From a virus (lineage: Duplodnaviria > Heunggongvirae > Uroviricota > Caudoviricetes), in the IMG/VR virus record IMGVR_UViG_648276652_000020: a stretch of 14,210 nucleotides of DNA; one strand, written 5' to 3'. Shown in pieces: positions 1,658 to 11,514 of the stretch; within the stretch, counting starts at the first letter, position 1; each line of letters opens with the position of its first letter. The position numbers were made by a program, and so were the translations under genes. Under the pieces are notes generated by a model. That model was not told the DNA's origin. It made no database searches and worked only from the letters and a program-made list of their open reading frames with translations.

Positions 1658-4129
1658 TTAAGAATCAGCCTGACTCGGGATAAGTTTTTGCCAGATAACT
1701 GAAACGTATTTTGCCTGGTAACGGGCGTCATCAAGTGCATTATGGCGCTCACCTTCGAATGGAATAGCCGTTCTGGCATCGAAGTCTATGGCTTTCCCCA
1801 GCTCAACGATTGTGCGTACATCGCGATCGTTGTAGTAACGCCACGGGCAGGGGATCCCCTGCCGTTCGTATGAACGGCGCAAAATCGTGTTGTCGAAGTT
1901 GGCTCCATTTCCCCAAACCTGAACAAAAAATTCACCGGAGTTTTCGTCGATAAATTCCCGCAATTGTAATAGTGCATCATCTAACGGGATTTCATCGGTC
2001 ATAATGGCAGATTGCGCTTCGCGTGATTGCTTAAGCCACCATTTAATGGTGTCCCGATCAATGACTCCGCCAGCAGTTTCCAGATCGATAGTCTTACTAA
2101 ATTCCGGTCCCATATCTCCGGTTTGCGGATCGAAAAATATTGCACCTATTGAGATGATCGGGGCATCAGGATTTTTTCCCATGGTTTCAAGGTCGATCAT
2201 TAGATGGTCACACGTCCTGCTGGTGGATGTGATAACGTGATGACCGTTCACCGTAATTAAGGGATCTGCCGTCTCGCCAGTTTCACTATCGCTGGCGTGG
2301 TCCTGAGCGCTGCCAGCATTCCCCTTGTGTGGATGTTCAGCGCCTTCCATTTTCTCCGAATCGTCTTCCTGAACTTCAACCTGGTTCTTGTCATCGAATG
2401 TTTCCTGGTATGTTGCGTCGCCCATCACCGCACCACAATCATGGCAGTTGCCGCCACCGCTCTGACCGCAGGCGGTGCAGATCTTTTTCGGTTCCTGTTG
2501 CACTACTGGTTCAGGTTGTTTCGTTTCTGGCTCGTTTTGTTGCGTATTTGGGCTGTTTTGTTCCGCTTTCTGATCGTTCTGTTCCGTTTCTTGCTGGTTC
2601 TGGTTCACAGAATCGCGGGTTTCAATCCCCTTTACCCATTCCGGATCATTCGGATCGCTAATCCCTGCAACAAATTCACCGCGTGATACTGCAAGCAGTT
2701 CATCGGTGTCAGGCTGGCTGATATTGGCTGCCTGCATAATTTTGTTTACTTCGTCAGCGGTAACTTTTACCGGCCCTGGTTGTGCGGTCGTGTCAGATGC
2801 ACCAGTATTTTGTTGTGAACCTGAGTATGTACCGTTTTTGCGGGCGAAATATTCTTCTTTCGTGATTTCAGTAGCCCCGGCAGCCAGTGCCTTATCCAGA
2901 CCAGAAAGTTTGTTTGCGCGACCGTATTTTTCGCCATCCTTGTCGGTGAAGAGGAAGTAGAACGGCCCCTCACGCTCTACAGATGGTTCGACTTCCACTT
3001 TGCATTCGGTTTTTTCGTTGTCCGGAATTGCCGTTTCCACTGCATCAGTTTCTGGTACTGGCGACGAGAGAGTATCAGTTGCGCTCTGATTTCTTCCTTC
3101 ATCTTCAAACACGCCCTTTGTAGTCAGGTATTCAGTAATGTATTTGTTCAGTGCCACAGGGTCTTTGTGAATGTCGATCGGACGTTCACGGACAAGGCCA
3201 AAAATAGTCTGGCGGTCGTAGCGAAGGGCATCAGGCTGTTTGCGCATTGATGCCGAGATACGCTTCCAGTCTTCGCGGTCGTTGTCGATAACTTCATTTT
3301 TTGCCCAGCGATGGATGCTGCCGTCAATGTTTCCGGCATCCACATCACCAGGCCAGAGAGCGTAGGCCAGTTCGTCATCCAGTGTTTTCCATGTCTGCTT
3401 GTATTCGCGATGAGTGGCAGCAATGACCGGGCTGATTTTTCCTGTTGAATTGTCAGTGTACTGTTGATTGGCTCTGGCGCGGGCGAGATCAACAACAGAC
3501 GTGTATTTTCCGGTTTCCTTGCGTTCACCTTCGCGACGTTTTTTCCAGATGCGCATCTCTGCCTGAATTTCGGGCCATTTAGCACCAGGAATACATTTAT
3601 GCTTAACCCACCCAATGGCGTGCAACTTAAGCTCCGGATACATGGCGTTAACTTCTGGCATTTTCATCAACGCTTCAACGATATGTCCGTCGAATGTTGC
3701 CATGTCTTCCTGCAACAATTCCTGTGCGCTAATAACCATATCAACGGTGATGTTTTCACATGTGTCGAACTTAACCAGGACCGCGTTCTGTACTTCAGGG
3801 GACAGCTTGTCAAAATTGACGTTCATCGGATCGGATTCTGGTTCGACCGGAATAAAGGAAGCGGATTCCTCATCCCAGCAGTTTTCCTGCATATATTCGG
3901 TATCCCAGGAGTCGATGGCAGGGCGGGGCATGCCGGGTTTATCCTCGCAAACAAGAAATTTATAAGCGCAGTCCTGAGCAGCCGGATATTGCTCCAGGAA
4001 TTGCCAGGTAAATTTGGCTCGGGCGCGGCGTTCGTCGCCGGCTTCAATGGCAGTGGCTACAGCGACTGCACCTTCTTCCTTTATTGCCTGTTCGTCCGGA
4101 ATGGCGGCGCAAATAAAGACTTTACTCAT
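1658..4129 (-). CDS. Prophage exonuclease, 823 aa, with C-terminal DEDDh (DnaQ-like) 3'-5' exonuclease domain (the kind often annotated exodeoxyribonuclease VIII-like)
   Basis: C-terminal domain shows the three DEDDh motifs: Exo I MIDLETMG, Exo II VWGNGANFDNTIL, Exo III ERHNALDDARYQ. The middle is an acidic/Q-rich low-complexity linker with a Cys cluster CTACGQSGGGNCHDCG. Start codon at 4127-4129 has GAGG 10 nt upstream. Confidence 0.85.
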   Translation of the reverse strand: MSKVFICAAIPDEQAIKEEGAVAVATAIEAGDERRARAKFTWQFLEQYPAAQDCAYKFLVCEDKPGMPRPAIDSWDTEYMQENCWDEESASFIPVEPESDPMNVNFDKLSPEVQNAVLVKFDTCENITVDMVISAQELLQEDMATFDGHIVEALMKMPEVNAMYPELKLHAIGWVKHKCIPGAKWPEIQAEMRIWKKRREGERKETGKYTSVVDLARARANQQYTDNSTGKISPVIAATHREYKQTWKTLDDELAYALWPGDVDAGNIDGSIHRWAKNEVIDNDREDWKRISASMRKQPDALRYDRQTIFGLVRERPIDIHKDPVALNKYITEYLTTKGVFEDEGRNQSATDTLSSPVPETDAVETAIPDNEKTECKVEVEPSVEREGPFYFLFTDKDGEKYGRANKLSGLDKALAAGATEITKEEYFARKNGTYSGSQQNTGASDTTAQPGPVKVTADEVNKIMQAANISQPDTDELLAVSRGEFVAGISDPNDPEWVKGIETRDSVNQNQQETEQNDQKAEQNSPNTQQNEPETKQPEPVVQQEPKKICTACGQSGGGNCHDCGAVMGDATYQETFDDKNQVEVQEDDSEKMEGAEHPHKGNAGSAQDHASDSETGETADPLITVNGHHVITSTSRTCDHLMIDLETMGKNPDAPIISIGAIFFDPQTGDMGPEFSKTIDLETAGGVIDRDTIKWWLKQSREAQSAIMTDEIPLDDALLQLREFIDENSGEFFVQVWGNGANFDNTILRRSYERQGIPCPWRYYNDRDVRTIVELGKAIDFDARTAIPFEGERHNALDDARYQAKYVSVIWQKLIPSQADS

Positions 4130-4209: not shown

Positions 4210-4413
4210 TTACGGTGCTGTTTTAAGTCCTGCCGGGATTTCGTTATTGTCCATGCGAATAACTTTCTCAACCGGATAACAGTTGCCGGGAATTTTCTGT
4301 TCCGCTGCGGCAGCCATGCATTCTTTCATTGAGTCATGTATACCAATAACAAGATCAACTGGCTCGCCCGTATTAAGAAAAACCGTCAGAACGAGTGCAA
4401 ATGTTGTATTCAT
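4210..4413 (-). CDS. Hypothetical small protein (67 aa from the internal Met; ORF extends to 4467)
   Basis: Start at 4413 has AGGA 8 nt upstream and forms an ATGA start/stop overlap with the upstream ORF (plus 4410-4413). N-terminus is hydrophobic (MNTTFALVLTVFL). No family recognised. Confidence 0.5.
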   Translation of the reverse strand: MNTTFALVLTVFLNTGEPVDLVIGIHDSMKECMAAAAEQKIPGNCYPVEKVIRMDNNEIPAGLKTAP

Positions 4414-4615: not shown

Positions 4616-4777
4616 TGAATTTTGTGATGCGGTGCCTGGTGCCTCCAGGTGACGTTAACCAGTTAATAATTAACGCCGGATACAGAGAACCCACCCATAA
4701 GAACCAATACGGAAGTCAACTGGCCTTTTTAACTGTTCCGCGTGCGCTGAGCCGCATTCACCGCATCACAAAATTCA
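4616..4777. repeat. Perfect 19-bp inverted repeat (tgaattttgtgatgcggtg at 4616-4634; caccgcatcacaaaattca at 4759-4777) separated by 124 bp
   Basis: Read directly from the sequence; arms are exact reverse complements. The 3' arm on the minus-strand transcript ends about 3 nt before the SD of the 4598 gene. The spacer contains further small palindromes (cctgg-tgcct-ccagg; gttaac; ttaataattaa). Confidence 0.8.
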
Positions 4778-4778
4778 C

Positions 4779-4827
4779 TTTAAAAAGGGCGGGTATCACA
4801 AGGGAAAACAAAAAACGGATACCCGCC
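4779..4827 (-). terminator. Candidate intrinsic terminator-like hairpin on the minus strand (10-bp GC-rich stem, 20-nt loop, then CUUUUUAAAG)
   Basis: Stem ggcgggtatc (4788-4797) pairs with gatacccgcc (4818-4827). On the minus strand the stem is followed by a T5 run (rc of 4779-4787). The loop is unusually long, so efficiency is uncertain. Confidence 0.3.
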
Positions 4828-5174
4828 AAAAGGTAATCAACATGGGTTGTTGCAGCGGGGTTGTCACTTAAGCGTATGGTCAACCTGACAACCCGGTGCC
4901 ACTAATGGGGTAAGAATAACCCCGCCATACTTACCGCCGCGCCATTTCGAGGATTGCCACAACCGGAAGCGCACAGACGAAGATGTCAGTGGTACACAAC
5001 AAAGGGAGGAATGACTTCGCCGTGCGCTTTCGCGTTATGCCCTGACTTTTCAGGGATATATCCTTTCAGTAAACTGTTTGTGCCGGATTCTTATCCGTGT
5101 CCGGCGCACGACCACGCGCTGTCACGTGTGGTCTCCATTCTCAACCAGTAACCTCAATGGAGGATAAAATTAAA

Positions 5175-5474
5175 ATGGTCAGCAAACTAAATCAGACTCG
5201 CTGGAAGATTCATTATGAAACAGCGCGTTTAAATTATATTCTTGAATGTTTTGGGGATAACCTTGCTGCTGAGGAAGGCTATCCAAACCATGTCGATGGT
5301 TTCGAAGCGATATATCTTTATCTATCCCGTAAACATGGATGGACTATTTCACAGTGTCGTTTAATGCCACTGGATGATATTCGCCTTGCTCTTTCGTTAG
5401 AGCTATCAGGGTGGCGACTCCCTGATGATGCAAAGATTGACGACCATCATTCTCACGATGATATAAGTTGTTAA
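5175..5474 (+). CDS. Hypothetical protein (~99 aa) encoded opposite to the surrounding leftward operon
   Basis: ATG at 5175 preceded by GGAGGA (5159-5164). Translation has balanced composition (MVSKLNQTRWKIHYETARLNYILECFGDNLAAEEGYPNHVDGFEAIYLYLSRKHGW...). Its 3' end overlaps the convergent minus-strand ORF by 131 bp, so one of the two may be mis-called. Confidence 0.45.
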   Translation: MVSKLNQTRWKIHYETARLNYILECFGDNLAAEEGYPNHVDGFEAIYLYLSRKHGWTISQCRLMPLDDIRLALSLELSGWRLPDDAKIDDHHSHDDISC

Positions 5475-5733
5475 GTTCCAGTAGTTTGGCTTTTGCAATG
5501 ACCTCTACAGATTTCCAGAATTTGTGGGGGTCTGTACTCTCTTCCTGTTCGTCAGGAATGTTATTGTCCTCAACAGAAACAGAATACAGTCCGGTAAACG
5601 CATCGCGCACATTACGAGCCATATTATCAATGTCTTTTTTCGTTTCAGCTTCTAATGCAACTTCGTTCAGACGTTGACGAAGTGTATGTGCTGCAATTTC
5701 TTGGATTTCTTTTGGTAACTCTTTAAATTCCAT
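5344..5733 (-). CDS. Hypothetical protein (129 aa from Met at 5733; ORF extends to 5745)
   Basis: GAGG SD 6 nt upstream of the ATG at 5731-5733. The upstream gene's TGA stop overlaps an in-frame ATG (plus 5743-5747). N-terminal two-thirds is charged and helical-looking (MEFKELPKEIQEIAAHTLRQRLNEVALEAETKKDIDNMARNV...). Confidence 0.55.
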   Translation of the reverse strand: MEFKELPKEIQEIAAHTLRQRLNEVALEAETKKDIDNMARNVRDAFTGLYSVSVEDNNIPDEQEESTDPHKFWKSVEVIAKAKLLELNNLYHRENDGRQSLHHQGVATLIALTKEQGEYHPVALNDTVK

Positions 5734-5744
5734 AGTCAACCTCA

Positions 5745-5978
5745 TCAGTCAGTGTTTCTGGCTAACCAGCGATGCGCGCCAGTTTCGGTTTTAAACGTTT
5801 TGCTTTTGGTATACGTCATCGCGGTGAATGTGCCGTCCTGGTTGGAAAACACGCCGTACACCAGAGATTCGTTGTTGCCAAGATCGATAGTATCCATGCT
5901 GACCTCATTTCCCCTTAACGCCGGGGTAGCGGAACAAAAACCTGCTGCATAGTTATTAAAGTTGAACCCTGCCGTCAT
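5745..5978 (-). CDS. Hypothetical small protein (77 aa; alternative start at 5897 gives 50 aa), first gene of the leftward operon next to the repressor
   Basis: ATG at 5976-5978 has GAGG 7 nt upstream; the internal ATG at 5897 also has an SD. Lies directly downstream of the candidate leftward promoter. No family recognised. Confidence 0.55.
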   Translation of the reverse strand: MTAGFNFNNYAAGFCSATPALRGNEVSMDTIDLGNNESLVYGVFSNQDGTFTAMTYTKSKTFKTETGAHRWLARNTD

Positions 5979-6076
5979 GTTCTTACGCCTCGGGCTGGCT
6001 ACTTACCCCCTGACCACTGCCTGGTAACTCGAAGTATTGCCCGGCGTTCTGTGGGGTGGGGTGAGGGAATGAATGA

Positions 6077-6122
6077 AGTTTAGAAAAATGAACTTTTCAG
6101 GTCAATGTTTTTTTATCAAAAC
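6077..6122 (-). promoter_or_regulatory. Candidate leftward early promoter (pL-like) with an adjacent operator-like palindrome
   Basis: On the minus strand: TTGACC (rc of 6100-6105), 17-nt spacer, TAAACT (rc of 6077-6082). Immediately upstream is gtttttttatcaaaac (6107-6122), a GTTTT...AAAAC pseudo-palindrome matching the operator-like sites near the repressor start. Assigned by hexamer matching only. Confidence 0.3.
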
Positions 6123-6189
6123 ATTTTAGGCAGGCAGCTGTTAAGCCATCACCACGATGGCATACAGTTAATCAAATAGATGAGGTTGG

Positions 6190-6828
6190 TTAAATATCTT
6201 GTTGAATTTTAAAGCATACGCCCAATATGCAAGATAGATCTTCCAGCATAATTGAAGGGTAGCGAGGATTCGTGGGGACTAAAAGAATATCCGGCCCTTC
6301 TATCTCCAGTTTACGAATGACAGGTGTTGTGGTCCCTTTGGGTAAGGCAAGGACAATATTTCCTGGTTGTACGGTTCGATCGGGATCAACAAAAACTGTT
6401 GAACCATTTGGGATGGAAACTCCCCCACCAGATGTTGACATACTGTCACTCTCTAGAACAACTGCAAAGGTATTGGCCGGGATTTCTCCGACAAGCTGCA
6501 CACAAGAGGTTATTGAGGAATTTTTCATATAATCACTCCAGCTTGCTGCCTGCTGAAGTGATAGTAGCGGAACCGTTTTTATCGGCGGTAAAGATAGATC
6601 AAGCGAATCACCTGTATTTAACTCTCCTCCATTAAGAAGCCAATTTTCGTTTACTTTCAATATCTTTGCCAGTGAACTTATGTAACGCGAGGACGGCGCT
6701 CCTCCACCGTTCATCCATTGACTTACGGAGCCTTTTGATGCGCCAGTGGCATTGACAAGGTCTTTGCCTTTCAGGTTTAGCGCATGCATACGTTGGGTTA
6801 TGCGTTCAGATATTGTTTGCTTGCTCAT
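6190..6828 (-). CDS. cI-like prophage repressor (N-terminal HTH, C-terminal S24/LexA-like autopeptidase domain)
   Basis: 212 aa. N-terminal HTH region (...LNLKGKDLVNATGASKGSVSQWMNG...). C-terminal domain with the Ser-containing motif VVLESDSMS...VFVDPD and a downstream Lys (VIRKLEIEG), as in lambda CI/LexA. Divergent from a cro-like gene. No SD, consistent with a leaderless pRM-type transcript. Confidence 0.9.
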   Translation of the reverse strand: MSKQTISERITQRMHALNLKGKDLVNATGASKGSVSQWMNGGGAPSSRYISSLAKILKVNENWLLNGGELNTGDSLDLSLPPIKTVPLLSLQQAASWSDYMKNSSITSCVQLVGEIPANTFAVVLESDSMSTSGGGVSIPNGSTVFVDPDRTVQPGNIVLALPKGTTTPVIRKLEIEGPDILLVPTNPRYPSIMLEDLSCILGVCFKIQQDI

Positions 6829-8753: not shown

Positions 8754-9176
8754 GTGGCAAAAGTTTTTACACAAGAAGAGCGGGAAAAAATTAAAGGGCA
8801 GGTTCTTGAACTCGTACGCCAGAGTGGGCGCGAGACGTTACGACAACTGGAAGCTAAAACTGGGGCAACAAGATATCTGATGAGCGTTCTGGCCAGAGAG
8901 CTGGTTGCCAGTGGCGATGTATACAATTCTGGCTACGGGTTATTCCCGTCTGAACAGGCTCGTAAAGACTGGCAAAATGCCCGCAAAAAATTATCGAGGG
9001 CAAAGCTGAAGAAACCGGTTGTGGTTGATCCGGACCTTATCTGGTCATTACCTGACGGAGAAATACGTCGCTACGACAGTCGCCTAAACATAATCTGTCG
9101 CGAGTGCCGGAAGAGCGAAGTTATGCAGCGCATATTGTCGTTTTATCAGGGGGATGTTCGGTATTTATTGAAGTGA
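8754..9176 (+). CDS. Hypothetical protein (140 aa), last gene of the replication-side operon before the prophage ends
   Basis: GTG start at 8754 with AGGAGGG upstream. No Walker A motif, so not a DnaC/P-type helicase loader. N-terminal region may be a winged-helix-like fold. Function unknown. Confidence 0.5.
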   Translation: MAKVFTQEEREKIKGQVLELVRQSGRETLRQLEAKTGATRYLMSVLARELVASGDVYNSGYGLFPSEQARKDWQNARKKLSRAKLKKPVVVDPDLIWSLPDGEIRRYDSRLNIICRECRKSEVMQRILSFYQGDVRYLLK

Positions 9177-9510
9177 CGAGATTAAAGTGCATTAGTTCAG
9201 ATGCAAATTGACATTTTGTGGCACAGGGTAGAGCTAGCGTGGTTGTCCGCTTTGTGCCAAGAGCAGACGCTGGTAATTCGTGCCTAATATACTTCACTTA
9301 ACTTATATCCCAGCTTTGATACAGATCATACAAATTAAATGCCCCAGTAATTGGCAGGCTGAGTAACTTAAAACTCCTTAGAATATAGGATGATTTGTAT
9401 CGGCACTCATTCCACCATGCATTCCGATTAACCCCGCATAGCCAGTTGAACTTTGCTACTCTGTGAGAGGTAGTACCTTCTATCCAGTGCGGATTTAATT
9501 AATGGAATAA

Positions 9511-11514
9511 ATGATTATGAGTGAAAATGATACAACCCCAAAGAAGTCTACAAGCCAGATTAACAAAGCGGTATTCTTTACATCTGCTTTGCTAATTTTC
9601 CTTCTTGTCGCCTTTGCCGCCGTATTCCCGGATGTCGCCGACAAAAATTTTAAACTACTTCAGCAACAAATCTTCACGAATGCCAGCTGGTTCTACATAC
9701 TTGCTGTGGCCCTGATTTTACTGAGCGTCACGTTCCTTGGACTCTCACGTTACGGTGATATAAAGCTGGGCCCAGACCATGCGCAGCCTGATTTCAGCTA
9801 CCACTCCTGGTTCGCGATGCTTTTTTCGGCAGGGATGGGGATCGGCCTGATGTTCTTTGGCGTTGCCGAACCTGTGATGCATTATCTTTCGCCACCTGTC
9901 GGCACTCCAGAGACCGTTGCGGCAGCGAAGGAAGCCATGCGCCTGACGTTCTTCCACTGGGGTCTGCACGCATGGGCAATTTATGCCATCGTGGCGCTGA
10001 TTCTGGCCTTTTTCAGTTACCGTCACGGTCTGCCTTTAACGCTGCGTTCTGCGCTCTATCCCATTATCGGCGATCGCATTTACGGGCCTATAGGCCACGC
10101 GGTTGATATCTTCGCCGTGATAGGCACTGTCTTTGGCGTTGCAACATCGCTGGGTTACGGTGTATTGCAGGTGAATGCCGGTTTGAACCATCTTTTCGGC
10201 GTGCCCATCAATGAAACGGTACAGGTCATTTTGATCGTGGTCATCACGGGGTTAGCGACGATTTCGGTGGTGTCCGGCCTGGACAAGGGAATACGCATCC
10301 TGTCTGAGCTTAATCTGGGCCTGGCGGTGTTGCTCCTGGCGCTGGTCTTGTGCCTGGGTCCCACTGTGCTTCTGCTGAAGTCATTTGTGGAAAATACGGG
10401 TGGTTATCTGTCGGAACTGGTGAGTAAAACGTTCAACCTTTACGCGTATGAACCCAAGTCGAGCAACTGGCTGGGGGGCTGGACATTATTATACTGGGGA
10501 TGGTGGCTTTCATGGTCGCCGTTTGTAGGTATGTTCATTGCACGCGTTTCCCGCGGCAGGACAATTCGTGAGTTCGTGACTGGCGTGTTGTTTGTTCCCG
10601 CCGGCTTTACGCTCATGTGGATGACGGTGTTTGGAAACAGCGCCATCTATCTCATCATGAACCAGGGCGCCACTGACCTCGCCAATACCGTTCAGCAGGA
10701 TGTTGCGCTTGCCCTGTTTAATTTCCTGGAGCATTTCCCGTTCTCTTCCGTGCTGTCATTCATTGCAATGGCGATGGTCATCGTCTTCTTTGTAACGTCT
10801 GCTGATTCGGGGGCAATGGTTGTGGATACTCTGGCATCAGGTGGGGTGGCAAACACGCCCGTCTGGCAGCGAATTTTCTGGGCATCGCTCATGGGCGTTG
10901 TTGCTATTGCCCTGCTGATCGCAGGGGGGCTGAGTGCGTTGCAAACCGTAACGATAGCGAGTGCATTGCCCTTCTCAGTTATCTTATTAATATCCATATA
11001 CGGACTGTTAAAAGCCCTGCGTCGGGATTTGACCAAGCGTGAAAGCCTTAGCATGGCGACTATTGCTCCTACGGCTGCACGTAACCCAATTCCCTGGCAG
11101 AGAAGGTTACGCAATATCGCGTATTTGCCGAAGCGCTCTCTTGTGAAACGTTTTATGGACGACATTATCCAACCCGCCATGACGCTGGTTCAGGAGGAAC
11201 TTAACAAGCAGGGAACGATAAGCCACATCAGTGACGCCGCCGAGGATCGTATTCGCCTTGAAGTCGATTTGGGCAACGAGCTGAATTATATATATGAAGT
11301 GAGGCTTCGCGGGTATAACTCACCGACCTTCGCGCTCGCTGCGCTGGATAATGATGAGCAGCAGAGTGAACAACATCGATATTATCGCGCTGAAGTCTAT
11401 CTCAAAGAGGGCGGCCAAAATTATGATGTAATGGGCTGGAATCAGGAACAGCTGATTAATGACATACTGGACCAGTACGAAAAACACCTGCACTTCCTGC
11501 ATCTGGTTCGTTAA
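9511..11514 (+). CDS. BCCT-family transporter, BetT-like (choline/glycine betaine/osmolyte uptake)
   Basis: 667 aa. BCCT signature WTLLYWGWWLSWSPFVGMFIARVSRGRTIREF. Multiple transmembrane segments and a long cytoplasmic C-terminal extension ending ...INDILDQYEKHLHFLHL, closely resembling the E. coli BetT C-terminus. Start at 9511 or 9517; the SD is weak. Confidence 0.93.
   Translation: MIMSENDTTPKKSTSQINKAVFFTSALLIFLLVAFAAVFPDVADKNFKLLQQQIFTNASWFYILAVALILLSVTFLGLSRYGDIKLGPDHAQPDFSYHSWFAMLFSAGMGIGLMFFGVAEPVMHYLSPPVGTPETVAAAKEAMRLTFFHWGLHAWAIYAIVALILAFFSYRHGLPLTLRSALYPIIGDRIYGPIGHAVDIFAVIGTVFGVATSLGYGVLQVNAGLNHLFGVPINETVQVILIVVITGLATISVVSGLDKGIRILSELNLGLAVLLLALVLCLGPTVLLLKSFVENTGGYLSELVSKTFNLYAYEPKSSNWLGGWTLLYWGWWLSWSPFVGMFIARVSRGRTIREFVTGVLFVPAGFTLMWMTVFGNSAIYLIMNQGATDLANTVQQDVALALFNFLEHFPFSSVLSFIAMAMVIVFFVTSADSGAMVVDTLASGGVANTPVWQRIFWASLMGVVAIALLIAGGLSALQTVTIASALPFSVILLISIYGLLKALRRDLTKRESLSMATIAPTAARNPIPWQRRLRNIAYLPKRSLVKRFMDDIIQPAMTLVQEELNKQGTISHISDAAEDRIRLEVDLGNELNYIYEVRLRGYNSPTFALAALDNDEQQSEQHRYYRAEVYLKEGGQNYDVMGWNQEQLINDILDQYEKHLHFLHLVR

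Follow-up and report, generated by a model that had tools for sequence, protein, structure and literature searches.

The stretch of viral DNA analyzed here (IMG/VR record IMGVR_UViG_648276652_000020; 14,210 nucleotides [nt], referred to below as the window) carries a ∼9.2-kb defective Escherichia coli prophage remnant, in which an unannotated plus-strand gene, here named A, runs tail to tail into a minus-strand gene coding for a 129-amino-acid (aa) protein, here named B, whose C-terminal domain we call B-core. We are highly confident of the anatomy of this locus: it is a mosaic in which A and B-core are both real, their convergent overlap is conserved, and the pair sits in a slot for exchangeable cassettes. 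The initial annotation, made from the sequence without database searches, described a system of three open reading frames (ORFs), at 5745 to 5978 (minus strand), 5344 to 5745 (minus), and 5175 to 5474 (plus). The three ORFs and the 131-bp overlap between the last two are confirmed, but the first ORF (77 aa) and the N-terminal half of the 129-aa protein belong to a backbone conserved in syntenic prophages, and genome comparison indicates that the real unit is two-part, consisting of A and the C-terminal domain of the 129-aa protein. The A/B pair is an interesting lead, and not a demonstrated defense system.

Gene A, B-core, and their overlap

Gene A (positions 5175 to 5474, plus strand) is predicted to code for a 99-aa all-alpha protein of an unnamed family and lies inside a longer open frame beginning at 5097. 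The NCBI annotation pipeline (PGAP) calls no plus-strand coding sequence at this position in either of two near-identical E. coli records. Searches with the single sequence returned only two clusters, one of them a 64%-identical Cronobacter protein, and no match among species-representative genomes, in which an alignment-based scan found two loci only. Alignment-based searches expand the family to 58 clusters at 90% identity, of which the named ones are all from Enterobacterales, all hypothetical, and without a Pfam domain, and a profile run against 1.84 billion representative sequences reports 291 proteins at an E value of ≤1e-3 and 137 at ≤1e-10. Among them are tandem A-A proteins, one fusion of an XRE-type helix-turn-helix (HTH) domain to A (P0079), and one protein with a hydrophobic N-terminal extension before the A domain.

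Outside the overlap, the ratio of nonsynonymous to synonymous differences (pN/pS) for A is 0.28 over 55 codons (Nei-Gojobori, 13 lineages), with pS saturated at 0.83; this and the other selection statistics reported here rest on nonindependent sequence pairs. AlphaFold2, given a 56-sequence alignment, returns an all-alpha model of five helices with a pLDDT of 89.9 and a pTM of 0.77, for which no structural neighbor was found, every structural score being below significance. Because it combines purifying selection, a conserved family, and a confident fold, we conclude from these comparisons that A is a real gene, as had been proposed initially for this plus-strand ORF, and one that standard annotation misses. 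It is also retained in contexts without any called B-carrying gene opposite.

Gene A has no match in Pfam, PHROGs, or PADLOC, and sequence-profile searches of the PDB with A and with B are likewise without a match. Its closest relationship is to NCBIfam NF033230, the ECs1072 family of phage-associated proteins, with a score of 30.6 bits and an E value of 3e-7, where the cutoff is 70, and an hhalign E value of 1e-4 (probability, 56%). The similarity spans A residues 17 to 87, and by these scores A is a distant relative of the ECs1072 family, below the cutoff for membership. Members of that family are also found antisense to lambdoid early operons, as for ECs_5703 in strain Sakai, but A is ∼50 residues shorter than the family and no B-core partner is seen at ECs_5703. 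A literature search for ECs1061, ECs1063, ECs1064, ECs1065, ECs5703, and ECs1072 found no functional study. Neither A nor B has a hydrophobic segment (the Kyte-Doolittle maximum of A is 0.57 over 19 residues), and both are acidic, with a median pI of 5.5 for the A family.

We note that A has been inactivated repeatedly while the opposite-strand gene remains intact (IMG/VR E. coli contigs L014 and L015 to L018; L023/L024; L049 to L051). Near-identical E. coli copies have a nonsense mutation at codon 7 (Q7*; four contigs) or codon 15 (one), further E. coli copies have lost the start codon, and the 5′ half of A is deleted with B intact in one Salmonella relative and one E. coli relative.

The opposite-strand gene (5344 to 5733, minus strand; PGAP WP_000394568.1) starts at the ATG at 5733, with an alternative longer frame of 133 aa at 5344 to 5745, and its 129-aa product consists of an N-terminal domain, a low-confidence linker, and B-core. 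The N-domain (residues 1 to 55; ∼5569 to 5733) matches phrog_1363, phrog_2151, and phrog_9419 and is part of the backbone, being present in hundreds of E. coli prophages. B-core, the C-terminal ∼65 aa (residues ∼61 to 129; 5344 to 5553), matches phrog_25397, accompanies A, and is a predicted two-helix domain with the motif TPxEFWxxVKxxA...L...H..EV..L.SL..EQ. Outside the overlap, B has a pN/pS of 0.49 and the TPxEFWxxVKxxA part of the motif is conserved. The B alignment is shallow. Mean column identity is 36% for B-core versus 66% for A. Stand-alone copies of B-core (55 to 70 aa) each have a canonical Shine-Dalgarno (SD) sequence 5 to 8 nt before the ATG, and the N terminus that precedes B-core varies from none at all in these copies to the backbone N-domain in the 129-aa protein, a 166-aa protein, an AlpA-like HTH, and others. 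These comparisons lead us to regard B-core as a real coding element. The AlphaFold model of the 129-aa protein is laid out, at low confidence, as an N-terminal helix, a poorly predicted linker, and a C-terminal helical hairpin, and was left out of the fold search for this reason. PADLOC-DB 2.0 has no component matching B or stand-alone B-core.

The two genes share 131 bp at 5344 to 5474, corresponding to A residues 57 to 99 and B residues 87 to 129. Among all of the loci fetched, a B-core profile match lies opposite the 3′ end of A in 19 of the 23 distinct full-length A sequences, and the overlaps, which vary from 92 to 257 bp across lineages, are each 2 modulo 3 in length. The pairing recurs among Enterobacterales prophages, in several genera and in at least two different prophage positions, and it is kept where the N terminus of B has been swapped. 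In Cronobacter, the plus-strand gene A is flanked by kilR and the repressor gene, both on the minus strand, with no ydfA or 129-aa gene present, and an uncalled 59-aa minus-strand ORF over the 3′ end of A resembles the C-terminal third of the 129-aa protein; in phage phiSTEC1589-Stx1c, where A lacks an annotation, B-core forms the end of a 166-aa protein coded in the rightward operon. Within the overlap, pN/pS is 1.18 for B versus 0.40 for A, and the frame of A therefore dominates the shared DNA.

In one subclade (L026, at 3957 to 3985 and 4371 to 4399, with L027, L028, and L006), the A/B module is bracketed by inverted repeats of 14 to 29 nt, AATCTGGATATCCCCAA, situated ∼20 nt upstream of both start codons, and the two arms in L006 share the same G-to-A change. 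These repeats may act on both genes as an operator or promoter element, or may mark the termini of a small mobile cassette.

The cassette slot

The segment from 5100 to 5760 was compared by megablast with 5,426 complete E. coli genomes; it is present in full in 27, including Shiga toxin-producing E. coli (STEC) O121:H19, and its flanks alone (5100 to 5170 or 5579 to 5760) are present in hundreds. Strains in which the cassette is intact include E. coli N18-04097 and O121:H19 FWSEC0006. The variable unit is therefore a ∼0.4-kb cassette at ∼5171 to 5578 that includes A and B-core, and the suggestion that the block is variable cargo holds for this cassette but not for its flanks. At the same position, the Qin prophage of E. 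coli K-12 has ydfB and ydfC.

The conserved plus-strand flank of the slot (5100 to 5174) ends in ...CTCAATGGAGGATAAAAT(G), and at least four unrelated cargo ORFs begin behind this same SD/start junction. The left junction ...CTCAATGGAGGATAAAATG is followed by differing ORFs in other prophages, and the cargo behind the junction includes Sakai ECs_1061 (61 aa), a 69-aa ORF in L046, a 64-aa ORF in L047 and L048, and A in the window, each facing a different C terminus of the N-domain protein. The ATG of the canonical junction is ATT in the window, and A begins 6 nt later.

Two tandem hairpins upstream of A (5079 to 5133; −38 kcal/mol) have folding z scores of −4.4 (plus strand) and −3.9 (minus), and the stem of the first covaries, being GCCGGA/TCCGGC in E. 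coli versus GCCTG/CAGGC elsewhere. The hairpins may represent a 5′ leader, an operator, or a site at which the RNA of the minus-strand operon is processed. The 5040-to-5174 flank, these hairpins, and the AATCTGGATATCCCC repeats are upstream elements with a candidate role as a promoter, operator, or RNA element. On the other side of A, a weak terminator-like hairpin (5542 to 5567, plus strand) is located 70 nt past the stop codon, with a folding z score of only −2.3.

Interpretation and likeness to known systems

In the model that we favor, although tentatively, A is made in the lysogen, and B, produced from the lytic operon, counteracts A through antisense RNA and possibly through protein binding. 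In the lysogen, the repressor would silence the minus-strand operon while A is transcribed from the conserved plus-strand flank, and A would act as a lysogen-phase accessory protein, such as an exclusion or abortive-infection effector, or as a regulator. When the operon fires, transcription would run antisense through A, and polymerase collision together with pairing of the complementary 3′ ends would lower its expression; the same operon transcript would yield B, whose small helical C-terminal domain may bind and neutralize A. The pair would then be a lysogeny/lysis toggle with self-immunity, by a logic like that of P22 sieB/esc/sas or BstA/aba. The fuller proposal, that A and B-core constitute an unrecognized two-protein, opposite-strand module of an effector and a lytic-phase antidote in which the overlap is an RNA-level toggle, we hold to be doubtful; if true, it would represent a new class of defense or toxin-antitoxin-like system, one that automated annotation would miss because one partner is hidden behind the other.

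Several observations weigh against this model. Expression of A in lysogens is proposed from its orientation only, antisense to a repressed operon, and scans of the window upstream of A yielded no convincing sigma-70 promoter on the plus strand. The strong SD sequence noted initially is present as GGAGG at 5159 to 5163, but at 11 nt before the ATG at 5175 its spacing is rather far. The 129-aa protein is modeled with a pLDDT of only 62 (helices at residues 8 to 50, 69 to 93, and 100 to 116), and in some stand-alone modules the same upstream inverted-repeat motif is found on both genes, hinting at coregulation and not at reciprocal expression. Nor is the pair obligate: B is missing from the A loci of Edwardsiella (L007) and of the distant homologues L041 and L043, B occurs where A is deleted or has a nonsense mutation, and within the overlap B is, by its pN/pS, under no purifying selection of its own.

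Both this lack of selection and the occurrence of each gene without the other speak for A and B as independent neighbors, with A a solitary moron, as the remaining cargo ORFs of the slot would be, B-core a mere C-terminal tail, and the overlap a consequence of genome compaction; moreover, in E. coli A and B-core lie in one recombination segment, such that linkage alone explains their covariation there. We nonetheless judge independence to be rather unlikely, given the co-occurrence in 19 of 23 distinct lineages with the same frame phase, the pairing in unrelated positions (beside the repressor, and on the replication/nin side of phiSTEC1589) with the B N terminus swapped, and the retention of an SD sequence, ATG, and EFW motif by stand-alone B ORFs. 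The polarity could also be reversed, with the operon protein acting as the effector, for host takeover or as a toxin upon induction, and A providing constitutive immunity or an antidote, its mRNA serving in addition as an antisense brake on leaky expression of B. This arrangement may be likened to the convergent immunity genes of pore-forming colicins, and it would suit a conserved N-domain that has several alternative C termini, each facing a different opposite-strand partner, where the partner genes have one conserved SD/start junction. It is nonetheless improbable in our view: loss of A through nonsense mutation, start loss, or deletion with B intact is unexpected if A protects against B, stand-alone B-cores have no N-domain, and the short, predicted two-helix B-core is less conserved than A and looks antidote-like.

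A different role for A, as a small regulator or DNA binder adjusting lysogeny or induction (for example, an antirepressor or early-left modulator) and not as a defense effector, is suggested by the XRE-HTH fusion in P0079, by an HTH gene directly upstream of A in L041, by the tandem A-A proteins, which suggest that the A domain dimerizes, and by the constant location of A beside the immunity region. With all structural scores below significance, an acidic family of a kind unusual for a DNA binder, and no operator-like target identified, we see this as distinctly unlikely. Finally, the absence of a PGAP call in the records inspected, the nonsense mutations in several E. coli copies, and the failure to find a promoter could be taken to mean that the plus-strand ORF is no gene but a chance open frame opposite a real one. 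This is hardly credible, as 56 of the 99 codons overlap no other gene and have the pN/pS of 0.28 given above, the 291 family representatives include nonoverlapping homologues, the fold is predicted with confidence, and the SD/start junction is conserved.

Should the favored model of a lysogen-made A counteracted by B be correct, the locus would add a new protein family and an unusual architecture, overlapping coding genes on opposite strands kept across genera, to the accessory and defense functions of prophages. It would also be among the better comparative cases of a functional antisense-overlapping gene pair in bacteria, because purifying selection acts on each frame where the DNA is not shared and all 19 lineages have the same phase. 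Further, the repressor-adjacent slot of Qin/Rac/Sp4-type prophages, among them prophages in STEC O121 and O157, would stand out as a hot spot where exchangeable cargo follows one conserved ribosome-binding junction. Even without any coupling of A to B, A represents a widespread family with a confident predicted fold that current E. coli annotation omits.

Of the known systems, the sieB genes of Rac, lambda, and P22 are the closest in position, occupying the same genomic slot as A. The sieB gene is a lysogen-expressed accessory gene. In Rac it is coded on the plus strand, opposite the early-left operon, and runs toward the DUF1391 gene ydaF, the two overlapping by 4 nt at their convergent ends. 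A has the same orientation relative to that operon and likewise has the DUF1391 gene on one side and kil/dicB on the other; it therefore occupies the sieB slot. The initial analogy to sieB is thus borne out in synteny and fails in sequence: A has no similarity to SieB and no match to it in Pfam, PHROGs, or PADLOC. SieB is a membrane-associated protein, whereas A is without a hydrophobic segment and is predicted to have a soluble helical fold. In P22, sieB is controlled by an antisense RNA (sas) and an antidote peptide (esc) (PMC7067206); Esc is made in frame from sieB itself; the partner of A, by contrast, is a separate protein coded on the other strand.

BstA/aba is a prophage defense with cognate self-immunity (PMC8585504), and the A/B locus resembles it in being a repressor-proximal accessory locus and in the proposed logic, in which a lysogen effector is off during the phage's own lytic cycle. 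They differ in that there is no homology and that BstA self-immunity is conferred by a DNA element and not by a protein or antisense transcript. The type I (antisense-RNA) pair ralR/ralA likewise belongs to the early-left region of a cryptic prophage, Rac, where its transcription units converge and ralA overlaps ralR and rcbA; in A/B it is the coding regions that converge and overlap, over the conserved 92 to 257 bp, and the transcripts may do so too. Both strands of A/B, however, code for conserved proteins, and no search made shows A to be a nuclease-like or small hydrophobic toxin. More generally, no small hydrophobic or otherwise toxic peptide of the kind found in type I toxin-antitoxin systems is seen here, A and B both being without a hydrophobic segment. 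With respect to type II systems, A and B are convergent with a 3′ overlap and not one cotranscribed operon, and neither is homologous to a known toxin or antitoxin family.

Operon backbone and neighboring genes

The minus-strand early-left operon of the window is of the Qin/Rac type, known as dicBF (PMC5069750), and reads in order: repressor, YdfA-like DUF1391 protein, N-domain protein, a hairpin at the position of DicF, dicB, DUF1482, and exonuclease. Pfam and PHROG matches around the cassette identify an integrase, an excisionase, an 823-aa exonuclease, DUF1482, and DicB, and further matches identify a LexA/S24-type repressor and P22-Cro-like, YdaT/CII-like, and DUF977/Ren-like genes. Alignment to K-12 Qin is highly similar and collinear through ydfA, the long leader, dicB, the DUF1482 gene, and the exonuclease gene, with the ydfB-ydfC segment replaced, and the A/B locus therefore sits in a dicBF-type early-left operon. 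The window thus has the same backbone genes as the ydfA-ydfB-ydfC-dicF-dicB-ydfD operon of Qin, but with the N-domain protein and the A/B cassette in place of ydfB and ydfC, and with a different hairpin at the DicF position. A consensus scan places a candidate early-left (pL-type) promoter at 6077 to 6105 (minus strand; TTGACC-17-TAAACT, 9 of 12 positions), between the repressor gene and the YdfA-like gene.

The first of the three ORFs noted initially, for which no family had been recognized, matches Pfam DUF1391 (PF07151) over residues 29 to 75, at 94.7 bits against a gathering threshold of 27.3. It aligns collinearly with ydfA, which in K-12 is the first gene beyond dicA, and is nearly identical to it from an internal ATG; in Rac, the DUF1391 gene ydaF is the second gene after racR, behind ydaG. 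The reading of this gene as 77 aa (5745 to 5978, minus strand) is not sustained, and it is most probably a 50-aa gene (5745 to 5897) with its start codon, an ATG, at 5897: the PGAP call is 153 nt long in the two near-identical E. coli records (WP_000379585.1), K-12 ydfA also starts internally, and the 27-codon extension is frameshifted in Sakai, such that the extension is probably noncoding. Its stop codon (5745 to 5747) is 11 nt from the 129-aa ATG, with GAGG between, and shares 1 nt with the alternative 133-aa start, so that the description of the two minus-strand genes as translationally coupled is roughly right. By homology and synteny, the DUF1391 gene is a routine backbone gene outside the A/B unit. 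PADLOC-DB 2.0 has no component matching the YdfA-like protein, and the literature search turned up no functional study of DUF1391.

A strong terminator-type hairpin lies at the K-12 dicF position (4785 to 4845, minus strand), with the sequence GGCGGGUAUC...GAUACCCGCC followed by a U-run, a folding energy of −18.5 kcal/mol, and a z score of −5.1. Its internal sequence is unlike DicF, and the Rfam DicF covariance model (RF00039) has no match in the window either at the gathering threshold or at an E value of ≤10; this hairpin may be a variant small RNA (sRNA) with different targets. The Rfam scan reports no family at the gathering threshold. A subthreshold match to STnc100, a Salmonella sRNA family, is found at 4621 to 4775 (minus strand; 33.5 bits versus a gathering score of 47; E value, 4e-5), in the leader just upstream of dicB, a stretch that is also conserved in K-12 Qin.

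The repressor ORF (6190 to 6828, minus strand) codes in the window for a full-length protein of 212 aa with HTH and S24 domains; in strain SOI121, the closest complete genome, only a 112-aa LexA family protein is annotated (L001, 7488 to 7826), and the repressor there may be truncated. Past the DUF977/Ren-like gene (9176 to 9511 and onward), the window continues with genes for a BCCT transporter, a DUF2254 protein, and a LysR regulator, and this junction recurs in ∼390 complete E. coli genomes.

The neighbors of A/B pairs in related loci lend some support to the accessory or defense function suggested initially, which in A and B themselves finds no PADLOC, Pfam, or structural match. In Salmonella enterica (L053), the gene for a PADLOC PDC-S42 protein (4672 to 5610, minus strand; E value, 5e-92) separates the A/B pair from the repressor, and immediately upstream of A, on the same strand, is a true ECs1072-family gene (3324 to 3770, plus strand; 162.8 bits). 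In Serratia marcescens (L039/L040), a putAbiC (PF16872) abortive-infection-like gene (5718 to 6533, plus strand) adjoins the pair, in the place where other Serratia copies have the repressor. Klebsiella L056 has, directly upstream of A, a gene for a 156-aa protein with a hydrophobic segment, provisionally two transmembrane segments (3376 to 3846, plus strand), for which there is only a very weak SLATT_4 match (E value, 0.06). This protein was considered as a SieB homologue and rejected, having no similarity to Rac SieB. Strain ZLWT has a RelE/RelB pair in the same region, where Sakai Sp4 has genes annotated only as a plasmid stabilization system protein and a hypothetical protein.

Also in Sakai Sp4, the ECs1072-family gene ECs_5703 (L045, 14361 to 14816) is antisense to the rightward early operon, between the YdaT/CII-like and replication genes, the position of the oop antisense RNA in lambda. 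In phiSTEC1589-Stx1c (L005, 2911 to 3559, plus strand), A is immediately preceded by genes for 95-aa and 119-aa proteins that are antisense as A is; the second is HTH-like by eye, and the duo could be a toxin-antitoxin-like pair.

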